Assembly (NCBI RefSeq): GCF_053078305.1
Contig: NZ_CP166879.1
DNA: 64,000 nt
Strand: one strand, 5' to 3'
Shown: positions 1 to 52,505 of the stretch, one piece after another
Position numbering within the stretch: position 1 is the stretch's first letter
Layout: every line of letters begins with the position of its first letter
Translations under genes and position numbers: made by a program
The notes under the pieces: generated by a model
What the model saw: only the letters and a program-made list of their open reading frames with translations
Databases searched by the model: none
Told to the model about the DNA's origin: nothing

Positions 1-2325
1 CTGATTGGCGGTGTGCCCGCGATCTTTCAGCCATGCGTTCAGGCAGACGCGGGTTGCCCGCAGTGCTTCACCCTCAGGCCAGCCGGTGATACCCAGACGG
101 GTTGCCAGTTCACCCGCCATCGCCACCAGTGCAAAGCGATTCACAGCCCGGCCCACCTGGTTGCCTGCATCTTTCGGAGTCAGGGCGGCAGCATATTCCT
201 TCATCAGCGATTTTGCCTGTGCCGTTAGTCCGTTAAGATCAGCGGTCAGTGCTTTCAGCCACTCCCGGAACGGCGAACCGTAGTAGCAGGACGTGGCCCA
301 TTCAAGATGCTCTGCCAGAGCCTTGCCGCTGTCGAAGCCGTGCAGCTCCTCAAAAACGCCAAACTTCCCGGAATCGCTGGGGATCTGGATCATCCTGACT
401 TCCATCCCGGCAAAAGTACGCTCACCGGCCTTTGCCGCATGTTCGGTCAGAGATAACTCGCCAGTTGAAAAGAACAACAGGCGCCACTGCTTACGGGTAC
501 GCAGCTCACCGTCCGTACCGGCACGACCCTTGCCCTGACCGTTTGCCAGCATGTAGGCGATACTGCCTGCCTCGCGTCCGTCAACTTCCCGGATCTCATC
601 AAGCATCATGGCGGCATCGTTGCGGCGGCTGGCGCATCCCTCCAGCGCGTTGCCGGTGGCCCGCCATGTCTGCCAGTAGTCAGGCCCGCCGCAGACGGAG
701 GTTGCCGCTTTCATGGTGGTGGTCTTACCGTCTGTCGATTCCCCTTTGAGGTGGTAGCCGCCGCCGTCCATACCAACCAGCCGTAACAGTGGTGCAGCAA
801 AGGCCAGGCTGACAGCAAATGCCACGCGGGAGTTGCCGGTACAGTAGCGGGATACGTTCTCCCGCCATTCCTCTGTTGTACCCGACACGCGGAAATCACG
901 CCCCTGCACGGAAGTGGTCTGGAGAATGACACCCTCTGCACCTTCACCGCTGACCTCATCCTGCAGGACGTAAACCTGACCATGCCAGCCAGTACGGCTG
1001 ACGCAGGTCACGCGGCGTTCCGGTTTACACAGTGAGATATATTCCATCAGGCGTGCGCGTGCCTCACCGGTGGTGCTGATATAAGACAGCCCGTTAACCA
1101 GCAGTACCCGGCGCAGTTCCTCACCACTGCCGCTCAGCATTTCCATCGGCATCGCCCAGCGGCGACGCTCACCCCATGTATCTTCCCATTCCAGCAGTCG
1201 TCCGAAGTTACCGCCATCGGCATCGCAGGTGATTGCCGTAACGCGCAGCGGGCTGCATATTTTGACGTTCTGGATCTCCGTCTCACCGTTGCGCTGTACC
1301 TGCTTTTCATACCAGAGATATTCCTGGGTAAGACGGAACCCGTGCGGCAGTTGCGTGCGGCCTTCCCCGCACAGTACCAGACCGTTGCGAAAGACTTCAC
1401 GGGCACGGGTAATACCGTGCTCCCGATGAAAGTCATTCCAGTCAGCCTTAATCTCTCCTGGTGGCAGCGTCATCCAGCCGCCAACAGCTTTTGCCGCCCG
1501 TTCAGCAAAGGCTCTGCCGGGATTCTCCCCCCCGTCCTGAAAATCGTTATCACCGGCGATGATAATTTTTACCTCAGGCCAGCGTGCCCGCAGCGACTGC
1601 GCCACATTGGGCAGGTTGCCCGCAGATATGGCAGCCACTACGCATCCGGCAGTGAGCTGGCTTACCGTCAGCGCCGTAGCGTAACCTTCGGTAATCACCA
1701 CCTGTACCGGTGGTTCAGACGGTAACGGGCTGAGCGACACAAACGCGCCTTTCATCGTGCTGCCGGGCAGTATGCTTTTTTCACCCGTCGGGGCGATAAG
1801 CTGTGCACCGGTCACGGCTCCGGTGTTGGTCGTGAGTGGTAACAGCAGAGAACCGGCAGGAAAATCCTTACCGCTGATATGCTGCACGCTTCCGGTCAGA
1901 GAGGCTGGGTATCCGGCGAACCCTTTTCCTGTCAGATAGGCGCTTTCTCCCGTGTGGCTCTCTTTCATCAGCGCCGCCACGGTAAGACCCATGTCGCGTT
2001 TAGGGGCTTTTTGTCTGGCAGGCTTAACAGGCAGTTCCTGCACATCCGGCACATTAAGCATCTGCGCCACCTCCTGCGCAGCCTTTCTGACGCTGTAACC
2101 GGTTACGAGCTTAACCAGATCCAGACCGTCACCATTGCCACACTGGCTGCAGATCCACGTCCCGCGCCCGTCAAGGTCATCAAGGCGAAAACGATCCTTG
2201 CCCCCACATTTCGGGCAGGGACCGTGCCTGCCGTTTTCAGGTACATCAATACGCAGCATCTGCAGAATAACGGGCCATTTCCCCCGCGCGGCGGCTGAAA
2301 TCTGCGTAACCGTCTGTATTGTCAT
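1..2325 (-). CDS. P4 alpha-like DNA primase-helicase (zinc-ribbon, Toprim and P-loop NTPase regions); 3' end runs off the window
   Basis: Hand translation of the minus strand from ATG at 2325 stays open to position 1 (about 775 codons). N-terminus has CPKCGG...CSQCG zinc-ribbon spacing, an internal IIAGDNDF Toprim-like acidic motif and a GESTDGKTT P-loop. Absent from the ORF track because it leaves the window. Start overlaps the upstream stop as ATGA. Confidence 0.8.
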   Translation of the reverse strand, partial: MTIQTVTQISAAARGKWPVILQMLRIDVPENGRHGPCPKCGGKDRFRLDDLDGRGTWICSQCGNGDGLDLVKLVTGYSVRKAAQEVAQMLNVPDVQELPVKPARQKAPKRDMGLTVAALMKESHTGESAYLTGKGFAGYPASLTGSVQHISGKDFPAGSLLLPLTTNTGAVTGAQLIAPTGEKSILPGSTMKGAFVSLSPLPSEPPVQVVITEGYATALTVSQLTAGCVVAAISAGNLPNVAQSLRARWPEVKIIIAGDNDFQDGGENPGRAFAERAAKAVGGWMTLPPGEIKADWNDFHREHGITRAREVFRNGLVLCGEGRTQLPHGFRLTQEYLWYEKQVQRNGETEIQNVKICSPLRVTAITCDADGGNFGRLLEWEDTWGERRRWAMPMEMLSGSGEELRRVLLVNGLSYISTTGEARARLMEYISLCKPERRVTCVSRTGWHGQVYVLQDEVSGEGAEGVILQTTSVQGRDFRVSGTTEEWRENVSRYCTGNSRVAFAVSLAFAAPLLRLVGMDGGGYHLKGESTDGKTTTMKAATSVCGGPDYWQTWRATGNALEGCASRRNDAAMMLDEIREVDGREAGSIAYMLANGQGKGRAGTDGELRTRKQWRLLFFSTGELSLTEHAAKAGERTFAGMEVRMIQIPSDSGKFGVFEELHGFDSGKALAEHLEWATSCYYGSPFREWLKALTADLNGLTAQAKSLMKEYAAALTPKDAGNQVGRAVNRFALVAMAGELATRLGITGWPEGEALRATRVCLNAWLKDRGHTANQ

Positions 2326-2705
2326 ACTTCCCCCTGATACAACGTCACACCGGTACTGCAGAAGTCATCAAAGGCCGCCGGAAGCGTGCGGTACATCTCC
2401 GCCATCACTTCACAGCCGCGCGCGGTCAGTACCGGCGGCGCGGTCAGCAGTGACGGCTCCAGCATGTCAGTCAGCAGTGCCAGCGCGGCAGCGGCGCCCT
2501 GTGCTTCGCCGTACTCGTTAATCAGTGCGCACTCGATATGCAGCGCAATGGCCATTTCAATACGCTCCACCGTCAGGCTGTGCGGACCATACTGATCACT
2601 GCCAGTTTCGTTCAGCATTTTCTGCCGCCATGCTGAAGCAATAGCCCGTCGGTAAAGCGCGGTGGTCATTTCTGCCGGGAAAATGGAAACCTGCGGCTGG
2701 TTCAT
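2322..2705 (-). CDS. hypothetical protein (127 aa), island operon member
   Basis: ORF with GGAGGTG Shine-Dalgarno immediately upstream of ATG at 2705; stop overlaps the primase ATG (ATGA coupling). Confidence 0.6.
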   Translation of the reverse strand: MNQPQVSIFPAEMTTALYRRAIASAWRQKMLNETGSDQYGPHSLTVERIEMAIALHIECALINEYGEAQGAAAALALLTDMLEPSLLTAPPVLTARGCEVMAEMYRTLPAAFDDFCSTGVTLYQGEV

Positions 2706-2986
2706 CTGGCACCTCCTTCAATCAGTGCGCAGCTGTGTGCAATATCCGTCAAATCTGCCCGCAGGTACTCCATCAGCGCGGCGACACCAGGCGCACAGCC
2801 TGCGTCCAGTGCTCCGGCCTGAGACGGGTATTCAGAAAAGAGAAGCTGGAGCATGTCGCAGGCATTTCTTGCGCGGATCAGCTTTCCGAAACCGTCCTCT
2901 GACAACCCATAGGCAAAAGCACCGGTATTGTGTTTTTCAGGCAAAGTGTGGCCCTGAGCACCGTTGTGCCCGTTTGAAATATTCAT
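2702..2986 (-). CDS. hypothetical protein (94 aa), island operon member
   Basis: ORF with GGAG Shine-Dalgarno upstream of ATG at 2986; stop overlaps the next gene start (2702-2705). Confidence 0.55.
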   Translation of the reverse strand: MNISNGHNGAQGHTLPEKHNTGAFAYGLSEDGFGKLIRARNACDMLQLLFSEYPSQAGALDAGCAPGVAALMEYLRADLTDIAHSCALIEGGAR

Positions 2987-3017
2987 CGTGAATTACTCCG
3001 TTTTCAGCGGTATTTTG

Positions 3018-3377
3018 TCAGAGAAACTTTGAATAGTGACCGTCGTCAGGCTCAGCAGAACGCCGTATGGTACGCTCCCGCCAGCGGATAAATAGCACAG
3101 ACGGATGCAGTGTCAGCGGGCCGGAACCACTACTGCCTGCAGGAGCTGGTGCAGGCTTAAAGAGCGGTACATCAAACAGGCGCGTATACCGCTGTTCAAA
3201 CCATGCCAGAGGGCAGGAAGAAAGCTGGTTGTCGCTGTCATGACGTATCAGCACTTCACAGCTGAATTCAGGATTAACCAGCGCCACAGAGGGCGAGGCT
3301 TCTATTAATCGGATAATCGTGACCGTCCAGCCACGTTCATGCCGCCAGCGTTCGCCGGGGTGCGGATAATTACGCAT
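3018..3377 (-). CDS. hypothetical protein (about 119 aa), island operon member
   Basis: Track ORF 3018..3407 begins on a non-ATG codon; an in-frame ATG at 3377 is preceded by GGAGGTGA, so the shorter start is preferred. Confidence 0.5.
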   Translation of the reverse strand: MRNYPHPGERWRHERGWTVTIIRLIEASPSVALVNPEFSCEVLIRHDSDNQLSSCPLAWFEQRYTRLFDVPLFKPAPAPAGSSGSGPLTLHPSVLFIRWRERTIRRSAEPDDGHYSKFL

Positions 3378-3546
3378 GTTCACCTCCGCAGGGAATGCGC
3401 CCGGCAAAGCTCAGTACACAGTCCGGGGCAAGTCTGCGCCGCGCTGACCGCTCATTATCTGCGGTGAGCCTTAACATCACAGGACGGGCATTGCGTTGAC
3501 TGCGGTTGATCGCCGCAAATAACCAGGTACACTTCTGTTTAGCCAT
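3370..3546 (-). CDS. small hypothetical protein (58 aa), first gene of the operon leading to the primase
   Basis: ATG at 3546 preceded by GAGG at good spacing; it is the C-terminal part of the track's 244-aa ORF 3370..4104, whose upstream portion looks non-coding. Confidence 0.35.
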   Translation of the reverse strand: MAKQKCTWLFAAINRSQRNARPVMLRLTADNERSARRRLAPDCVLSFAGRIPCGGEHA

Positions 3547-3621
3547 CTTCGTTACCTCATATAGCGGATTGGTCAGAAGCCCGGTTAGTGTTGCTGCACT
3601 GTCGGGCTTCGCACTCACAAG

Positions 3622-3713
3622 GTGAATCGCACCTTTAATTTTAAAGCTACCCTTAAGTGAATCGCACTTCAAGCTTTTTATTATCATTTTTTTTGCGTAT
3701 ACTGAATCGCACC
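3622..3713. promoter_or_regulatory. three direct repeats of TGAATCGCAC(C/T) in a divergent promoter region (candidate operator sites)
   Basis: Copies read directly at 3622-3633, 3657-3668 and 3702-3713, between the minus-strand operon start (3546) and the plus-strand small gene (3734). Confidence 0.5.
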
Positions 3714-3733
3714 TAACGCGAGGAGATCCAGTA

Positions 3734-3919
3734 ATGGCAACGAGTTCAACTAACAACAAGTCGCAGCAACTTAATGCTCGTTTCCCACATGATGTAGTTG
3801 CAGAATTAGAAAGCAACCTTGAAGATGGAGAAACGAAAGCGCAATTCATTGTTACTGCTGTAAAAGGCGAGATTAAACGCCGACAGCGCAGGAAAAATAA
3901 GCCAGAGCAAGGAAGTTGA
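3734..3919 (+). CDS. small basic protein (61 aa), possible ribbon-helix-helix-type DNA-binding regulator
   Basis: ATG at 3734 preceded by AGGAG; lysine/arginine-rich C-terminus; rho-independent terminator downstream. DNA-binding role is inferred. Confidence 0.55.
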   Translation: MATSSTNNKSQQLNARFPHDVVAELESNLEDGETKAQFIVTAVKGEIKRRQRRKNKPEQGS

Positions 3920-3982
3920 ATAGAGAAGCCAACAGACGTTCTCTCTGGTCCCATGTTAATTTCAGTAAGCGACAATATTTTT

Positions 3983-4016
3983 AAGCCCACAAATTCATTA
4001 TGTCGGGCTTTTTTAT
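3983..4016 (+). terminator. rho-independent terminator downstream of the 61-aa gene
   Basis: GC stem (aagccc...gggctt) followed by a T-run at 4009-4015. Confidence 0.5.
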
Positions 4017-4030
4017 TAGTGATTTTCATA

Positions 4031-4246
4031 TCACTCACCACGAGAGGCATATATTTGCTCTTGAATCCAGTGATCAACTTCGCTTTCAACGAATGAAATT
4101 GCACGAGTTCCTATTTTCACCGGACGGGGAAATGTATTGTTTGCAAGCTGTTTGTAAAGCCATGCCTTGCTACGCTGAACGCGTCTTAATACCTCTTTTG
4201 CTGAGATAAGAGTCTGATTATCTGAAAAGCTGTTTGCATATTCCAT
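4031..4246 (-). CDS. alpA: AlpA-family phage transcriptional regulator / excisionase-like protein (71 aa)
   Basis: Size and sequence character match AlpA-type regulators of P4-like islands; ATG at 4246 preceded by GGAG. Track ORF starts earlier at 4291. Confidence 0.7.
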   Translation of the reverse strand: MEYANSFSDNQTLISAKEVLRRVQRSKAWLYKQLANNTFPRPVKIGTRAISFVESEVDHWIQEQIYASRGE

Positions 4247-4530
4247 CTTGTTACTCCGTGTTCTACTTAAGTTCACGGTGACTTTAAACACTGGGAAAAA
4301 GTGATTCTAGTGATAATGGAATCTATTAAGACAAACATTGATTCTATTGAAAAACAATAATCTCCACTGAAAAAAAGAAGTAATATTCATATGAAAGAAC
4401 ACGGAAAGAAGGAAATGCACAAAACAATAAAATTAATAAAATTCATATAGATAGGATGGAAAATCAAAAAATCATACGTCAAAAGGTATTATTACATTTT
4501 AACGATTCATATTACCTAGGAATTAGCACA

Positions 4531-4560
4531 GTATTACACCGTATTACATCGTATTACCCC
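4531..4560. repeat. three perfect tandem 10-bp repeats GTATTACNNC
   Basis: gtattacacc / gtattacatc / gtattacccc read directly in the AT-rich intergenic region between the 212-aa gene and alpA. Confidence 0.6.
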
Positions 4561-4622
4561 CTATAGCCCCTTAGAGCCTCTTGTGGCCCTTCTATTGAGA
4601 GATAGCCAGAAAATTAATAAAT

Positions 4623-5261
4623 TCACTCTCCGTATTTTATAATGTCTTTCCCCAGCTTTATTTTCTTATAAAACGTAGCTTTTTTAATCCCTTTCATTAG
4701 AATCTCATTCTCATTACAAAAAGAAACAATATCATTATATATAACACTATTATCGCTATAACTTACCTTTCCATGTCTCTTAAGCAATTCAATTAGTAAA
4801 TAAATTAATTTACAACTATAATTATCCTCATCATCTTTTCTGTACTGCCCTCTACCATTACTCCTTAATTTTTTACCAACTTCACATAATTCACTTCCTC
4901 CTAACGTCATTAGAATATCGCTCCAATCTTTATTTTTTACCTGTTGTCGTAATGCGTTCTCAATTCTCTCCTTAATCTCCACAGGTACAATACCTTCCCT
5001 CTGAAAGATATAAGCAGCAGTTAATAATAAGTTCGCCTCCACTTTTTGCGTGGCGGATACGTTTTTATATTCATTAATTAATTGTAGATTTCTGGTTATT
5101 GCCTTTCTTAATCTAATAACCTCTTTTAATTGAACCTCAGTCAATTCATCATTTTCGGTATCATAGTCAAAACCATTCATAGCAAGCGCCACTTCGTGTG
5201 GCGTTATGTAAGTTAACCTATTAAAATAAAACAAATTATTATCAAATTGAGTATTGTTCAT
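4623..5261 (-). CDS. hypothetical protein (212 aa), AT-rich orphan cargo gene immediately downstream of the integrase
   Basis: ATG at 5261 preceded by GGAGAG; clean ORF; visibly AT-rich and rich in K/N/I/E codons compared with flanking core genes; no motif I can recognise. Confidence 0.7.
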   Translation of the reverse strand: MNNTQFDNNLFYFNRLTYITPHEVALAMNGFDYDTENDELTEVQLKEVIRLRKAITRNLQLINEYKNVSATQKVEANLLLTAAYIFQREGIVPVEIKERIENALRQQVKNKDWSDILMTLGGSELCEVGKKLRSNGRGQYRKDDEDNYSCKLIYLLIELLKRHGKVSYSDNSVIYNDIVSFCNENEILMKGIKKATFYKKIKLGKDIIKYGE

Positions 5262-5290
5262 TTAAATCTCTCCGCAGCCCCCAATGGTAA

Positions 5291-6574
5291 TTATTTTCCA
5301 TGCATACGCGCAAAATCATATGGTGTGATAGATCCATTCTTATTAGCATCAATATAATCAGCCCACCATTGCAACATTAATCTTCTTTCTTCAAGATATT
5401 CGGAAGTATGCATATATGAACCTTTCACGTTTTTTCGTTCAACGTGGCTTAACTGTCTTTCAATGGCATCATCATTCCATAGTTTCGACTCACTTAGCGC
5501 ACCACGCGCCATAGTTCTAAACCCATGACCACATACTTCAGTTTTCGTATCATATCCCATTACACGTAAGGCGTTATTTACTGTATTTTCACTCATTACT
5601 TTTTTAGGATCATGATCGCTGGGAAATATAACCTCACCTTTACCACTCAAGGCATGTAAACGTTTAAAAATATCAAATGCTTGTTTGCTAAGCGGAACAA
5701 TATGTTCAGTTTTCATCTTCATCCCACGCTCAGAGTGTTTTACGCCGGGAATAGGCTTACGAATTCCGGGTATTGTCCACTCGCTTCGTTCAAAGTTAAC
5801 CTCACTCCAGCGAGCAAAACGCATCTCACTTGAACGTATAAATGTGAGTAGCGTTAATTCAACGGCAAGCCGTGTCATTAGTCGCCCTTTATAGCGTGAT
5901 AGTCTTTCAAGAAGCTCAGGAATTCTTTTTGGGGGTAGTGCTGGGTGGTGGGTTGCTTTAACGCTTAAAAGCGCTCCAGCCATATCGCATGCAGGATTTG
6001 ATTCAAGCAGGTCATTCTGCACACCAAAACGCATAATTGCGGTTACGCGCTGCATCAGTCGCTGCGCGACATCATGTTTACCTGCCGTATCGACAGCTTT
6101 GATTGGATTGAGAAGCTGGCTGGTTCTCAACGTTCTGGCATCGATTTGACCTATCGAGGGGAAAATATACTGCTCAAGTGTCAGCAGAACACGACGGCTA
6201 TGATCTTCGCTCCAAGTAAGGTTACTTGCGTGCCATTGCCTTGCGATAGTTTCAAATAAATATGCCCCCTCAATTTCAGCTTGTGCCCCCTTTTGCTCAG
6301 CTTTGGGGTCAATACCCTGAGACAACAATTTCTTTGCTGCATCGCGCTTACCCCGCGCTTCAGCCAAAGTGACAGTCGGGTATACACCAAAAGCGAGTCG
6401 ATCTTCCTTTTTGTCAGAGGGGCGGCGATATTTCATGCGCCAGTACTTAGAACCTTTAGGGGAGACCTCAAGATACAAGCCGCCTCCATCAGCCATTTTA
6501 TAAGCTTTCTCTTTCGGCTTTGCGGTCTCTATCTGGCGAGCGTTGAGTTTCATTTTGGGGGCACAAATCCTCAT
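5291..6574 (-). CDS. P4-type tyrosine integrase (site-specific recombinase)
   Basis: 427-aa ORF adjacent to the tRNA 3' end; sequence character matches P4-family integrases. True start may be the internal Met at 6553. Confidence 0.85.
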   Translation of the reverse strand: MRICAPKMKLNARQIETAKPKEKAYKMADGGGLYLEVSPKGSKYWRMKYRRPSDKKEDRLAFGVYPTVTLAEARGKRDAAKKLLSQGIDPKAEQKGAQAEIEGAYLFETIARQWHASNLTWSEDHSRRVLLTLEQYIFPSIGQIDARTLRTSQLLNPIKAVDTAGKHDVAQRLMQRVTAIMRFGVQNDLLESNPACDMAGALLSVKATHHPALPPKRIPELLERLSRYKGRLMTRLAVELTLLTFIRSSEMRFARWSEVNFERSEWTIPGIRKPIPGVKHSERGMKMKTEHIVPLSKQAFDIFKRLHALSGKGEVIFPSDHDPKKVMSENTVNNALRVMGYDTKTEVCGHGFRTMARGALSESKLWNDDAIERQLSHVERKNVKGSYMHTSEYLEERRLMLQWWADYIDANKNGSITPYDFARMHGK

Positions 6575-6717
6575 CGAATTGACATGCCCCCGATTATGCC
6601 CCCAAAAGAGGGTAGACTACAAGAGACCAACAAAGACCATTAGATACCATACTTTACTTGTTTTTTAAGGATTTTTTTGTATTTAGAGACTTCAGGAAAC
6701 GTCAAAAGAAGTGTTAA

Positions 6718-6802
6718 TGGTGCCGAAGGCCGGACTCGAACCGGCACGTATTTCTACGGTTGATTTTGAATCAACTGCGTCTACCGATTTCGCCACTTCG
6801 GC
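6718..6802 (-). tRNA. leuX: tRNA-Leu (anticodon CAA)
   Basis: Reverse complement reads GCCGAAGTGGCGAAATCGGTAGACGCAGTTGATTCAAAATCAACCGTAGAAATACGTGCCGGTTCGAGTCCGGCCTTCGGCACCA, with the CCA end facing the integrase. Confidence 0.95.
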
Positions 6803-17253: not shown

Positions 17254-18768
<1,515 letters not shown>

Positions 18769-18769
18769 T

Positions 18770-19092
<323 letters not shown>

Positions 19093-33048: not shown

Positions 33049-35745
33049 TTATTGCCAGCCGTAACGACGGCTATAGAACCCTTTCACCAACTGGGTTAAT
33101 GTCATATACCCTGCCAGAATCGCAACCAGCCACGGGAAATAGCTTAACGGCAGCGCCTGTAATTGCAGATAACTGGCCAGCGGTGAAAACGGCAATGCGA
33201 TCCCGACAATCATCACGATCACGGTCATGATCATTAACGGCCACGATGCACAGCTCTGAATAAACGGCACACGGCGGGTGCGGATCATATGCACAATCAG
33301 CGTTTGCGACAGTAAGCCCACCACAAACCATCCCGACTGGAACAGCGTTTGCGTTTCCGGCGTGTTGGCATGGAATACCCACCACATCAGGCAAAACGTC
33401 AGAATATCGAAGATCGAGCTGATCGGTCCGAAGAAGATCATAAAGCGCCCCAGATCCGCCGGATTCCAACGCTGCGGCTTTTGAATTTGCTCGTCGTCGA
33501 CGTTATCAAACGGGATCGCCACCTGTGACACATCGTACAGCAGGTTCTGAATAAGCAAGTGTAACGGCAACATCGGCAGGAAGGGCAAGAAAGCACTCGC
33601 CACCAGCACGCTGAACACATTACCGAAGTTAGAGCTCGCCGTCATTTTGATGTATTTCAGCATGTTGGCGAAAGTGCGACGTCCCTCAATAACCCCCTCT
33701 TCCAGCACCATCAGGCTTTTTTCCAGCAGGATGATATCAGCCGCTTCACGGGCAATATCTACCGCGCCGTCCACAGAAATGCCGATATCCGCAGCGCGTA
33801 AGGCGGGCGCATCATTAATACCATCGCCCATAAAGCCAACCACATGCCCTTCGCGCTTCAGTAAGGTCACAATGCGTTCTTTATGCATCGGCGTCAGGCG
33901 GGCAAACAGCGTGGTGCGCTGTGCAAGATTTGCCAGTTCGTCGTCAGATAGCGTTTCAATATCACTACCAATGACCACCTCTCCCGCGTCCAGCCCCACT
34001 TCATGGCACACTTTCGCTGCAACTAACTCACTGTCGCCAGTAAGGATTTTTACGGTAATTCCACTCGCTTTTAATGCCTTCAGTGCCGGAGCGGTTGTCT
34101 CTTTTGGCGGATCAAGGAAAGCAATATATCCTTCGAGGATCAGGTCGGATTCATCCGCCCGCTGGTAATCTCCTTCACGCGCTGGCAGGTATTTCGTCGC
34201 CACCGCAACCACGCGCAGCCCCTGACGATTCAGCGTATCAGTAACCCGCTTAATCTTACGCAGCATGATGTCATCGAGCGGCACAATCTCGCCATTGTGA
34301 CGCACCTGCGAACACACATTGAGGATTTCCTGCAATGCACCTTTGCAAACCAGCTGATGGTGCTCGGTATTTTCTGCCACTACCACCGACATCCGGCGAC
34401 GCTCGAAATCAAACGGAATCTCATCGATTTTTTGCCAACGACTGGCCAGCGAGCGCGCTGACTCTTCATCCGTACCTTCGAGCACCGCTGTATCGAGCAG
34501 GTTTTTAAGTCCGGTCTGATAATGACTGTTCAACCACGCGCTATGCAGCACGCGTTCGCTGGTTTTACCGGAGATATCGGTATGATTCTCCAGCACAATT
34601 TTATCCTGCGTCAGGGTGCCGGTTTTATCAGTGCACAGAATATCCATTGCGCCAAAGTTCTGAATAGCATCCAGATGTTTGACGATCACTTTCTGTTTCG
34701 ACAGCTTTACTGCGCCGCGCGCCAGCGTCGAGGTAACAATCATCGGCAACATTTCCGGCGTTAGGCCTACCGCGACCGAAAGCGCAAACAGCGCCGCTTC
34801 CCACCAGTCGCCTTTGGTGTAACCATTGATTAACAGCACCACCGGTGCCATCACCAGCATAAAGCGAATCAGCAGCATACTGACGCGGCTGATCCCTTGC
34901 TGAAAGGCATTCGGCTCGCTTTCCTGCTCACTAACACGCCCCGCCAGTTGACCAAACCAGGTATTGGCACCTGTAGCAATCACCATTGCTTGTGCCGTGC
35001 CGCTCACCACGGTGGTGCCCATAAAACACAGCGTGTCGCACTCCAGCGGATTGCTGTGCTCCGGCTGGCGAGTGGTAGCGGCTTTTTCTACGGGCAGAGA
35101 CTCACCGGTTAACGACGCCTGAGCGACGAACAGATCCCGCGCCTGCAAGATACGTAAATCTGCCGGGATCATATCTCCCGCCGCCAGTTTTATAATATCG
35201 CCGGGCACCAGCTGGTCGATCGGGATCTCCAGCCAGCCATTTTCGCCTTTGTCGTTAATTACGCGCAGCACCGTCGCGGTATTGCTGACCATCGCTTTCA
35301 GGGCATCTGCCGCTTTAGTGGAACGTGCTTCCTGAATAAAGTTCAGCAACGTTGAAATAGCGACCATTAGCGCGATAACGCCCGCAGCAAATAAATCTTC
35401 CGTGGCGTAAGAAATAGCGCCGAGAATGGTGAGTAAAATATTAAAGGGGTTGCGATAGCAGGCCCATAAATGTACCCACCACGGCGACGGTTGTTGTGCG
35501 GGTAATTTATTTTCACCATGTTGTTCGCGGGCAGATTCCACTTCCGCCTGATTTAACCCTTCCGGATGGGTGTCGAACGTTTTCCACAATTCTTCTTCGG
35601 GCATCACCGCCATTTTCAGGCAATGCGCACTTAAGGACGGCGGGACCACCGTATTCACTGTCTGCTGCGCGCCAGGCAATGGATCACGATGAACCAGACG
35701 GGAAGGTAAATGGCGAGTGAGCCGGGTAAAAATTTCTTTAAACAT
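33049..35745 (-). CDS. mgtA: magnesium-transporting P-type ATPase
   Basis: 898 aa with DKTGTLT phosphorylation and GDGINDAPAL motifs. Confidence 0.97.
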   Translation of the reverse strand: MFKEIFTRLTRHLPSRLVHRDPLPGAQQTVNTVVPPSLSAHCLKMAVMPEEELWKTFDTHPEGLNQAEVESAREQHGENKLPAQQPSPWWVHLWACYRNPFNILLTILGAISYATEDLFAAGVIALMVAISTLLNFIQEARSTKAADALKAMVSNTATVLRVINDKGENGWLEIPIDQLVPGDIIKLAAGDMIPADLRILQARDLFVAQASLTGESLPVEKAATTRQPEHSNPLECDTLCFMGTTVVSGTAQAMVIATGANTWFGQLAGRVSEQESEPNAFQQGISRVSMLLIRFMLVMAPVVLLINGYTKGDWWEAALFALSVAVGLTPEMLPMIVTSTLARGAVKLSKQKVIVKHLDAIQNFGAMDILCTDKTGTLTQDKIVLENHTDISGKTSERVLHSAWLNSHYQTGLKNLLDTAVLEGTDEESARSLASRWQKIDEIPFDFERRRMSVVVAENTEHHQLVCKGALQEILNVCSQVRHNGEIVPLDDIMLRKIKRVTDTLNRQGLRVVAVATKYLPAREGDYQRADESDLILEGYIAFLDPPKETTAPALKALKASGITVKILTGDSELVAAKVCHEVGLDAGEVVIGSDIETLSDDELANLAQRTTLFARLTPMHKERIVTLLKREGHVVGFMGDGINDAPALRAADIGISVDGAVDIAREAADIILLEKSLMVLEEGVIEGRRTFANMLKYIKMTASSNFGNVFSVLVASAFLPFLPMLPLHLLIQNLLYDVSQVAIPFDNVDDEQIQKPQRWNPADLGRFMIFFGPISSIFDILTFCLMWWVFHANTPETQTLFQSGWFVVGLLSQTLIVHMIRTRRVPFIQSCASWPLMIMTVIVMIVGIALPFSPLASYLQLQALPLSYFPWLVAILAGYMTLTQLVKGFYSRRYGWQ

Positions 35746-35885
35746 AAGGAGTCCCTCCGCACTGTCTGAAACAGTACAGAAATGTCTTCAGGCGTGGCGA
35801 AGCCTTACCTGAAGGTAATAAAGCTGAGCAGGGACGTTAAAACGTCACGGCCTTACGCATCCGGTAACGCCGTGAAAAGACGGGC
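35746..35885 (-). promoter_or_regulatory. mgtA leader RNA between mgtL and mgtA (Mg2+/proline-responsive)
   Basis: Position between the proline-rich leader ORF and mgtA; role from established knowledge. Confidence 0.6.
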
Positions 35886-35939
35886 TTACCGGAAAAGTTT
35901 TAATCTCCGTCGAGGGAGAGGCGTGGGATCAGGTTCCAT
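35886..35939 (-). CDS. mgtL: mgtA leader peptide
   Basis: Minus-strand translation from ATG at 35939 gives [17 protein letters not shown] followed by a stop. Confidence 0.85.
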
Positions 35940-36123
35940 ATAACCTCCGGTAAGTGAAAAAAGCGCCGCAAATAATAAGGAGAATCCAATAATATTCGTA
36001 GCATCTATGGCGATATAATACCTGCTGGCAACTAAACCAACGATAAACCAGACTTTACCCATTGCTGAATGCATGGGTAAAGTTAGGCTCAAATAATTAA
36101 ACAACACGTTACGGGACAACAGG

Positions 36124-37071
36124 ATGCAAAATCGGCTGACCATCAAAGACATCGCGCGCTTAAGCGGCGTGGGGAAATCTACAGTTTCCCGGGTGCTGAA
36201 TAACGAAAGCGGCGTGAGCCAGCGTACGCGCGAGCGTGTTGAAGCAGTGATGAATCAGCATGGATTTTCCCCTTCCCGCTCTGCGCGCGCTATGCGTGGG
36301 CAAAGCGATAAAGTGGTCGCCATCATTGTTACCCGTCTGGATTCGTTGTCAGAAAATCTCGCCGTTCAAACCATGCTGCCAGCGTTCTATGAACAAGGTT
36401 ACGACCCAATCATGATGGAAAGTCAGTTTTCCCCGCAATTAGTTGCCGAACATTTGGGGGTGCTGAAACGGCGTAATATCGACGGCGTAGTGCTGTTCGG
36501 TTTTACTGGCATAACAGAAGAAATGTTAGCCCACTGGCAGTCATCGCTGGTTCTGCTGGCGCGTGACGCAAAAGGCTTTGCTTCGGTCTGTTATGACGAC
36601 GAAGGGGCAATCAAGATCCTGATGCAACGGCTGTATGACCAGGGGCATCGTAATATCAGTTATCTCGGCGTGCCGCACAGTGACGTGACAACCGGTAAGC
36701 GACGTCACGAAGCCTACCTGGCGTTCTGCAAAGCGCATAAACTGCATCCCGTTGCCGCTCTGCCAGGCCTTGCTATGAAGCAAGGCTATGAGAACGTAGC
36801 AAAAGTGATTACGCCTGAAACTACCGCCTTACTGTGCGCAACCGACACGCTGGCACTTGGCGCAAGTAAATACCTGCAAGAGCAACGCATCGACACCTTG
36901 CAACTGGCAAGCGTCGGTAATACGCCGTTAATGAAATTCCTCCATCCGGAGATCGTCACCGTAGATCCCGGTTACGCCGAAGCTGGACGCCAGGCGGCCT
37001 GCCAGTTGATCGCACAGGTAACCGGACGCAGCGAACCGCAACAAATCATCATCCCCGCCACCCTGTCCTGA
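36124..37071 (+). CDS. treR: trehalose operon repressor (LacI family)
   Basis: 315 aa with N-terminal helix-turn-helix. Confidence 0.95.
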   Translation: MQNRLTIKDIARLSGVGKSTVSRVLNNESGVSQRTRERVEAVMNQHGFSPSRSARAMRGQSDKVVAIIVTRLDSLSENLAVQTMLPAFYEQGYDPIMMESQFSPQLVAEHLGVLKRRNIDGVVLFGFTGITEEMLAHWQSSLVLLARDAKGFASVCYDDEGAIKILMQRLYDQGHRNISYLGVPHSDVTTGKRRHEAYLAFCKAHKLHPVAALPGLAMKQGYENVAKVITPETTALLCATDTLALGASKYLQEQRIDTLQLASVGNTPLMKFLHPEIVTVDPGYAEAGRQAACQLIAQVTGRSEPQQIIIPATLS

Positions 37072-42859: not shown

Positions 42860-43010
<151 letters not shown>

Positions 43011-46136: not shown

Positions 46137-46250
46137 GGTTTGCCGGATGCGGTGCACCTGTAGGCCTGATAAGACGCATCAAGCGTCGCATCAGGCACTA
46201 TGCTCAAATGCCGGATGCGGCGTGAACGCCTTATCCGGCCTACGCACACT
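46137..46250. repeat. REP/BIME elements
   Basis: gccggatgcgg...gcctgataagacgc...gcgtcgcatcaggc units between yjgA and mpl. Confidence 0.8.
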
Positions 46251-52389: not shown

Positions 52390-52505
52390 CGTGCTCCCAG
52401 TAGGCATGATAAGACGCGGTAAGCGTCGCATCAGGCTTCAGTGCACCATCGCCGGATGCGGCGCGAGCGCCTTATCCGGCCTACGAATCGGCATCAGGCA
52501 TAGCA
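52390..52505. repeat. REP/BIME elements
   Basis: gcatgataagacgcggtaagcgtcgcatcaggc and gccggatgcggcgcgagcgccttatccggcctac units. Confidence 0.8.

Follow-up and report, generated by a model that had tools for sequence, protein, structure and literature searches.

The mgtL-mgtA leader in a 64-kb segment of an Escherichia coli chromosome: reading frame, alternative hairpins and relatives

Results

A 17-codon reading frame precedes mgtA

The stretch of DNA analysed here (64 kb; hereafter, the window) carries on its minus strand an mgtA gene preceded by a small proline-rich reading frame, and this arrangement raises the question of whether the sequence upstream of mgtA is the regulatory leader known from Escherichia coli, a riboswitch, the end of a longer gene or a chance reading frame. 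A first-pass annotation, made from the letters alone, had proposed a 17-codon ORF on the minus strand upstream of mgtA and had identified it as mgtL. The two coding sequences are as follows.

33049..35745, minus strand: mgtA, Mg2+-importing P-type ATPase, 898 aa, intact, with the private substitution I10T at 35717
35886..35939, minus strand: mgtL coding sequence, 17 sense codons plus TAA

Direct translation of 35939..35886 bore out the proposed ORF. The codons, read 5' to 3' on the minus strand, are ATG GAA CCT GAT CCC ACG CCT CTC CCT CGA CGG AGA TTA AAA CTT TTC CGG TAA, with Pro codons at positions 3, 5, 7 and 9, and neither the read nor the translation of this interval revealed a frameshift or an internal stop, the defects that the first-pass annotation had named as fatal to its own reading. 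The predicted peptide fits what is expected of mgtL in the Enterobacteriaceae, an ORF of 15-18 codons that begins with M-(D/E)-P-(D/E)-P-T-P-L-P. A Shine-Dalgarno (SD) sequence, GGAGG, is found at 35948..35944, 4 nt 5' of the ATG, and 140 nt separate the mgtL stop codon from the start of mgtA, both on the minus strand.

It had also been observed that mgtL does not appear as a separate entry in the ORF track, and this is indeed the case. Because its frame is open upstream to an ATG at 36152, the mechanical ORF finder does not list mgtL, which is absorbed as the last 17 codons of an 88-codon ORF (35886..36152). Reading the letters alone recovered a regulatory ORF of 17 codons that mechanical ORF callers bury in a spurious one of 88.

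The leader is identical to that of E. coli K-12

The whole window was scanned with cmscan at the gathering thresholds of Rfam, and the model RF01056 (Magnesium-II, the enterobacterial Mg sensor) matched at 35954..35839 (-) with 125.8 bits (gathering score, 40). The match covers the full length of the model (positions 1-115 of 115) with E = 5.5e-25, far beyond chance. RF01056 is the only family found at the locus; the same scan of the window produced no match there to the M-box (ykoK-type) riboswitch model.

A 501-nt query around the site matched 5,425 of 5,426 complete E. coli genomes. RefSeq labels among the matches listed were treR, mgtL ('mgtA regulatory leader peptide MgtL', WP_001387276.1) and mgtA, and the counterpart in K-12 MG1655 is b4702 ('leader peptide MgtL'). 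The comparison with annotated mgtL that the first-pass annotation had proposed as a check returned the same peptide, in the same position and with the same downstream gene as in the annotated E. coli mgtL/mgtA. The surroundings are likewise conserved: mgtA lies directly downstream of mgtL, is co-oriented with it and is annotated as mgtA in the matching genomes; treR starts divergently at 36124; and the gene order pyrBI, ridA, mgtA, mgtL, treRBC, nrdDG is the standard arrangement of the E. coli chromosome.

In the alignment with K-12 MG1655, every base matched between the -10 region and the mgtA ATG, both included (100% DNA identity). The element shares with the K-12 mgtL (b4702)/mgtA leader the peptide, the stems A, B and C described below, the PhoP box and the flanking treR and mgtA genes, with zero differences inside it. 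Four substitutions fall in the treR-mgtL spacer (36113, 36081, 36074 and 36028) and one in mgtA (35717, MgtA I10T). Since the window diverges by about 0.6% from the closest complete E. coli genomes (about 99.4% identity over 12 kb), the spacer substitutions and I10T are consistent with background divergence. Over the 501-nt query, the best identity in any complete E. coli genome was at most 99.6%. Given the divergence over 12 kb, the DNA would come from a lineage that is somewhat divergent, or from a Shigella.

Two of these changes, 36074 (G to A, in the treR-mgtL spacer) and 35717 (T to C, MgtA I10T), were absent from both genomes aligned, K-12 MG1655 and strain 88-3493. The A at 36074 creates an ATG in frame with mgtL, upstream of the putative transcription start.

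In all, we are nearly certain that this is the known mgtL-mgtA leader of E. coli, a transcription attenuator that acts in cis and is coupled to translation, and we found nothing that speaks against this identification. This leader is already known and counts among the best-studied in bacteria; because it is so well studied, and because the copy in the window is identical to that of the reference strain, no new biology follows from its presence here.

Promoter and extent of the leader

The sequence between treR and mgtL contains candidate promoter elements, which define the probable extent of the leader transcript.

36033..36049, minus strand: PhoP box, direct repeat GGTTTA-N5-GGTTTA (GGTTTATCGTTGGTTTA), exact, starting 110 nt 5' of the mgtL ATG
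36015..36020, minus strand: candidate -10 hexamer TATTAT of the PhoP-activated promoter, read from the sequence, without a -35 consensus
35746..36009, minus strand: mgtA mRNA leader, a putative 264 nt that hold mgtL and the alternative stem-loops

The PhoP box is a predicted site of the kind that precedes mgtL/mgtA leaders, and even with one mismatch allowed its sequence occurs nowhere else in the 64 kb; PhoP binding and a PhoP-dependent promoter at mgtA are known from the literature (PMC11552253). A generic scan of 35600-36250 found no sigma-70 -35/-10 pair, as expected for an activator-dependent promoter. Because the promoter scan gave no positive evidence, we placed the transcription start by homology with the 264-nt leader of Salmonella, probably at about 36008-36009. 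A start at 36009 would produce a leader of 264 nt with mgtL at nt 71-124, the same numbers as described for Salmonella (PMC6460261).

These limits modify the interval 35746..35939 originally assigned to mgtL and the mgtA leader. Both are there, but the interval begins at the mgtL ATG, whereas the functional leader begins about 70 nt farther upstream, putatively at about 36009. The stretch left out includes the 5' arm of stem-loop A, with the mgtL SD (35944..35954).

The leader folds into mutually exclusive stem-loops

The 264-nt leader had a minimum free energy (MFE) fold of -87.3 kcal/mol, with z = -4.27 against shuffled sequences. The following elements were located in it.

35944..35954, minus strand: stem-loop A, 5' arm CUUACCGGAGG, containing the mgtL SD GGAGG (35944-35948); from the Rfam alignment, MFE fold and pair counts
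35885..35895, minus strand: stem-loop A, 3' arm UUUCCGGUAAG, holding the last codon CGG and the stop UAA, and doubling as 5' arm of stem-loop C
35847..35873, minus strand: stem-loop B, attenuator conformation, ACGGCGUUAC-CGGAUGC-GUAAGGCCGU; from the Rfam model and MFE fold
35861..35892, minus strand: stem-loop C, anti-attenuator, CCGGUAAGCCCG ... CGGCGUUACCGG; -15.9 kcal/mol alone

Stem-loop A surrounds the mgtL gene, whose SD lies in the 5' arm of the stem and whose stop codon lies in the 3' arm. Because stem C pairs this 3' arm with the 5' arm of B, it is mutually exclusive with both A and B. Structure prediction of the alternative hairpins, the second check proposed in the first-pass annotation, returned stems A and B together as the MFE structure (-36.3 kcal/mol) and stem C, at -15.9 kcal/mol, as the exclusive alternative; C became the MFE structure once the 5' part of stem A was blocked. 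Computationally, then, the leader contains an attenuator (B) and an anti-attenuator (C) that cannot coexist.

We also folded the leader with part of it masked by a ribosome footprint. With the footprint placed on codon 17 or on the stop codon (17/18), the CCGGUAAG arm was covered, stem A was lost and stem B was retained; this predicted survival of stem B is what the published model needs. Footprints at the Pro codons 3-9 did not yield stem C in these static folds, because the program used for folding allows stem A to form around the masked region; we treat this outcome as a limitation of the method and not as evidence against the model. A terminator scan of 35600-36250 detected no intrinsic terminator (G+C-rich hairpin followed by a U-run) on either strand, which fits non-intrinsic termination.

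Conservation and covariation among relatives

To look at relatives, one genome per species was scanned with the pattern ATGGANCCNGANCCNACNCCNNTNCC, which retrieved 65 loci. The majority (52 of 65) belong to Enterobacteriaceae or to closely related metagenome assemblies, with genera such as Escherichia, Salmonella, Citrobacter, Kosakonia, Leclercia, Atlantibacter and Pseudocitrobacter, among others. Two of the 52 are E. coli; the set of 51 loci used to represent organisms other than the species of the window keeps one of them, L025 (E. coli E69), as a distinct representative. This locus encodes a partial MgtA of 858 aa with a different N-terminal sequence. The other 13 pattern matches (Oscillospiraceae, Sphingomonas, Actinobacteria and others) were discarded as chance matches, with no SD, ORFs of at least 23 codons and no mgtA; their number is approximately that expected by chance.

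Every one of the 51 Enterobacteriaceae loci has an ORF of 15-17 codons preceded by TTACCGGAGG, and the start of an MgtA or MgtA-like protein was found in 49 of them, 148-291 nt 3' of the mgtL ATG and mostly at 189-200 nt. A PhoP box with 0-2 mismatches is present in most of the 51, 74-124 nt 5' of mgtL (mostly 100-118 nt). Three loci from Kosakonia and a related MAG (L015, L043 and L057) have an mgtL-mgtA distance of about 290 nt, compared with about 195 nt, that is, an insertion of about 95 nt in the distal leader. The Kosakonia-type loci also have their best PhoP-box match nearer to mgtL (about 79-84 nt), and another GGTTTA half-site lies farther upstream.

The scan pattern fixes the first nine codons, and conservation of the N-terminus in the 51 loci is consequently circular. 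Independently of our search, the Rfam consensus has conserved first and second codon positions and a variable third position throughout the ORF. Residues 10 to 16 of MgtL, unconstrained by the search, vary freely in sequence and length among the 51 loci, and CCGGTAA, including the terminal CGG-UAA, is invariant across 53 aligned leaders. Because residues 10-16 vary while CGG-UAA is fixed as part of the CCGGTAA arm, it is the RNA, and not the peptide, that constrains the C-terminus of MgtL.

The alternative helices are also conserved. In the 53-sequence alignment, 96.8% of cells in the A+B structure were paired, compared with 36-49% when partner columns were slid; stem A alone was 96.3% paired and stem B 97.9%, each with 52 distinct sequences. 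Both partners are changed in seven A+B pairs; six of the seven belong to stem B, where compensatory changes affect six of ten pairs. For stem C, 89.3% of cells were paired among the relatives, compared with 14-47% when partner columns were slid. In three Atlantibacter sequences, the outermost C-G pair of stem A is replaced by U-A and the matching G-C pair of stem C by A-U, by means of a single shared nucleotide. Covariation support for stems A and C is thin, because their cores are nearly invariant.

Predicted structures in the distal leader

The part of the leader from stem B to the mgtA ATG was examined in an alignment of 43 leaders, from which a consensus structure was derived with RNAalifold.

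35830..35835, minus strand: GUCCCU, nearly invariant, predicted pairing partner of AGGGAC (35751-35756) in the mgtA SD region
35786..35814, minus strand: conserved hairpin CUUCAGG...CCUGAAG, in the MFE fold and, with compensatory changes, in RNAalifold
35757..35779, minus strand: conserved hairpin CUGYRC...GYRCAG, just 5' of the mgtA SD, several pairs changed on both sides
35751..35758, minus strand: mgtA Shine-Dalgarno region GGAGGGAC, read from the sequence

The hairpin at 35786..35814 may correspond to the pause-stabilising hairpin of Salmonella, whose leader has, besides this hairpin, a single Rho termination site at U218 (PMC5314796). Unlike Salmonella with its U218, the putative E. coli leader has a C at nt 218, located within a hairpin, and the pause site does not map reliably. 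Pairing between GUCCCU and AGGGAC was predicted in the window and 42 further leaders of Enterobacteriaceae with almost no covariation, and because of this the helix is an unproven prediction.

It is conceivable, if rather improbable, that the distal half (35746-35846) carries a layer of control beyond stems A, B and C. The helix between GUCCCU and the SD region would enclose the two conserved hairpins and could gate mgtA translation; together with the report on a Rho mutant cited below, E. coli could then attenuate mgtA by a route other than the Rho-dependent one of Salmonella.

Other features of the window

Several features elsewhere in the window are also recorded here. A second classical leader peptide gene, pyrL (MVQCVRHFVLPRLKKDAGLPFFFPLITHSQPLNRGAFFCPGVRR), occupies 30837-30971 (+), just 5' of pyrB (30975-31910), and, as with mgtL, is concealed in a longer mechanical ORF (30771-30971). 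A tRNA-Leu(CAA) gene, leuX by synteny, is found at 6718-6802 (-), next to a gene for a P4-type tyrosine integrase of 427 aa (5291-6574, minus strand; domains Arm-DNA-bind_3, Phage_int_M and Phage_integrase). Past the integrase there are ORFs without a Pfam match and one DUF5375 protein, and positions 1-6802 resemble the border of a genomic island integrated at leuX.

The Rfam scan also retrieved Ysr276 (174.7 bits) at 17815-18009 (-), antisense to pepA and within its coding sequence (gene assigned by synteny with strain 33F4), which probably reflects conserved coding sequence and not an independent sRNA gene. Five matches to naRNA4, a family of REP-type intergenic repeats, lie on the minus strand at 18843-19014 (two adjacent), 42864-42934, 46163-46240 and 52403-52481. 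Near the end of the window, ES036 matched at 61972-62014 (+) with 39.3 bits, barely over its gathering score, and STnc450 at 62094-62151 (+) with 77.2 bits, within 180 nt of the former.

Discussion

A model for the leader

The first-pass annotation had stated that the leader couples proline and Mg2+ sensing to mgtA expression, and the literature agrees (PMC11552253, PMC6460261, PMC11282234). Our sequence work shows that the element matches the Rfam family, is identical to that of K-12 and can form two exclusive helices, for which conservation and covariation were recorded among relatives; the response to Mg2+ and proline, the destabilisation of the ribosome and the participation of Rho are taken from published work, some of it on the identical K-12 sequence.

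Combining both, PhoP would activate the promoter about 70 nt upstream of mgtL, and the nascent leader would adopt one of two folds, either stem-loops A and B or stem-loop C. With sufficient Mg2+ and Pro-tRNA/EF-P, the ribosome would translate all 17 codons up to the UAA inside the CCGGUAAG arm; this arm would then be unavailable for stem C, stem B would form and transcription would stop before mgtA. When Mg2+, proline charging or EF-P activity are low, the ribosome would stall or dissociate on the N-terminal M-E-P-D-P-T-P-L-P, leaving the arm free to form stem C, and RNA polymerase would read into mgtA.

Published experiments are the basis for most of these steps. Repression of mgtA by high Mg2+ operates via the leader and depends mainly on mgtL translation; at low Mg2+ this translation is inefficient owing to the prolines and acidic residues (PMC11552253). 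Ribosomes that translate the EPDP motif in E. coli are destabilised by it and abort within MEPDPT, more strongly at low Mg2+ or without bL31 (10.1101/2021.02.02.429294). EttA represses mgtA by stabilising the ribosome on EPDP (PMC11282234); the acidic residues of EPDP are now held to be as important as the prolines (10.1101/2021.02.02.429294, PMC11282234). In Salmonella, loss of EF-P raises mgtA mRNA about 12-fold, in dependence on the Pro codons of mgtL (PMC6460261), and termination in the mgtA leader is Rho-dependent (PMC12360218, PMC5314796). Rho dependence is not established in E. coli, because the Rho termination score of mgtA was 1.0 in an R66S mutant of Rho (PMC5499598), and reviews consider that the Salmonella mechanism is possibly not conserved in this species (PMC12360218).

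Alternative explanations

The field has yet to agree on whether the RNA itself senses Mg2+ or whether sensing goes through the translation of mgtL (PMC11552253). If the leader were purely a Mg2+-binding riboswitch, the RNA would sense cytoplasmic Mg2+ and choose between A+B and C, with mgtL translation being incidental. The Rfam entry for the element is named 'Magnesium riboswitch aptamer', and structural probing has been reported to reveal two Mg2+-dependent conformations, while Mg2+ raises Rho termination in vitro on the Salmonella template without ribosomes (PMC11552253). We nevertheless find this explanation unlikely, as reviews and recent E. coli work place regulation primarily on mgtL translation, and changing EPDP to QPNP, substituting the prolines, or losing bL31, EF-P or EttA all shift mgtA expression (PMC11552253, 10.1101/2021.02.02.429294, PMC11282234, PMC6460261); the variable third position of otherwise conserved codons in the Rfam consensus also points to coding constraint. 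A second alternative is that MgtL is a functional small protein acting in trans, for instance on MgtA or PhoQ, instead of a sensor in cis. Other small proteins do regulate this pathway and the length of the ORF is conserved (15-17 codons), but the freedom of residues 10 to 16 to vary among the 51 loci, the fixation of CGG-UAA by the CCGGTAA stem arm and the reported abortion of translation within the first six residues under inducing conditions (10.1101/2021.02.02.429294) make such a role highly improbable.

We give practically no credence to the idea that the true gene is the 88-codon ORF, with mgtL as its mere C-terminal tail, or that the short ORF arose by chance, and both were rejected. 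The frame is certainly open for 88 codons, and the G to A change private to the window at 36074 adds an in-frame ATG to it. The extension, however, has no SD, crosses the PhoP box and the -10 hexamer upstream of the putative transcription start, overlaps the start of treR on the opposite strand and is not conserved as coding sequence in relatives; RefSeq, in turn, annotates only the 17-codon mgtL. A chance ORF is excluded by the Rfam E value given above.

Comparison with known systems

Among the closest known systems is the mgtL/mgtA leader of Salmonella enterica, which has the same geometry, Pro codons 3, 5, 7 and 9 and alternative stem-loops. The mgtL-to-mgtA spacing in the window, 194 nt, equals that of S. 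enterica subsp. arizonae and diarizonae. The peptide of the Salmonella subspecies sampled, MDPEPTPLPRWR(V/I)FLFR, differs from that of the window, and Rho dependence, demonstrated in Salmonella, is questioned in E. coli (PMC5499598). A further difference is a G-G mismatch in stems B and C of E. coli, where most relatives have a C-G pair.

The leaders of corL/corA and mgtP/mgtCBR likewise contain a short ORF in stem A, fold into A+B or C(+D) and show Mg2+-dependent premature termination (PMC11552253, PMC5314796). They belong, however, to other loci and encode other peptides, corL having a single proline and a UUG start, and neither is found at this position.

As in the trpL, hisL and pyrL attenuators, translation of a leader ORF selects between RNA hairpins at mgtL. 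Unlike these, the mgtA leader has no intrinsic terminator, and its signal is not a run of codons for the end-product amino acid but elongation dependent on Mg2+, proline and EF-P, together with the stability of the ribosome itself.
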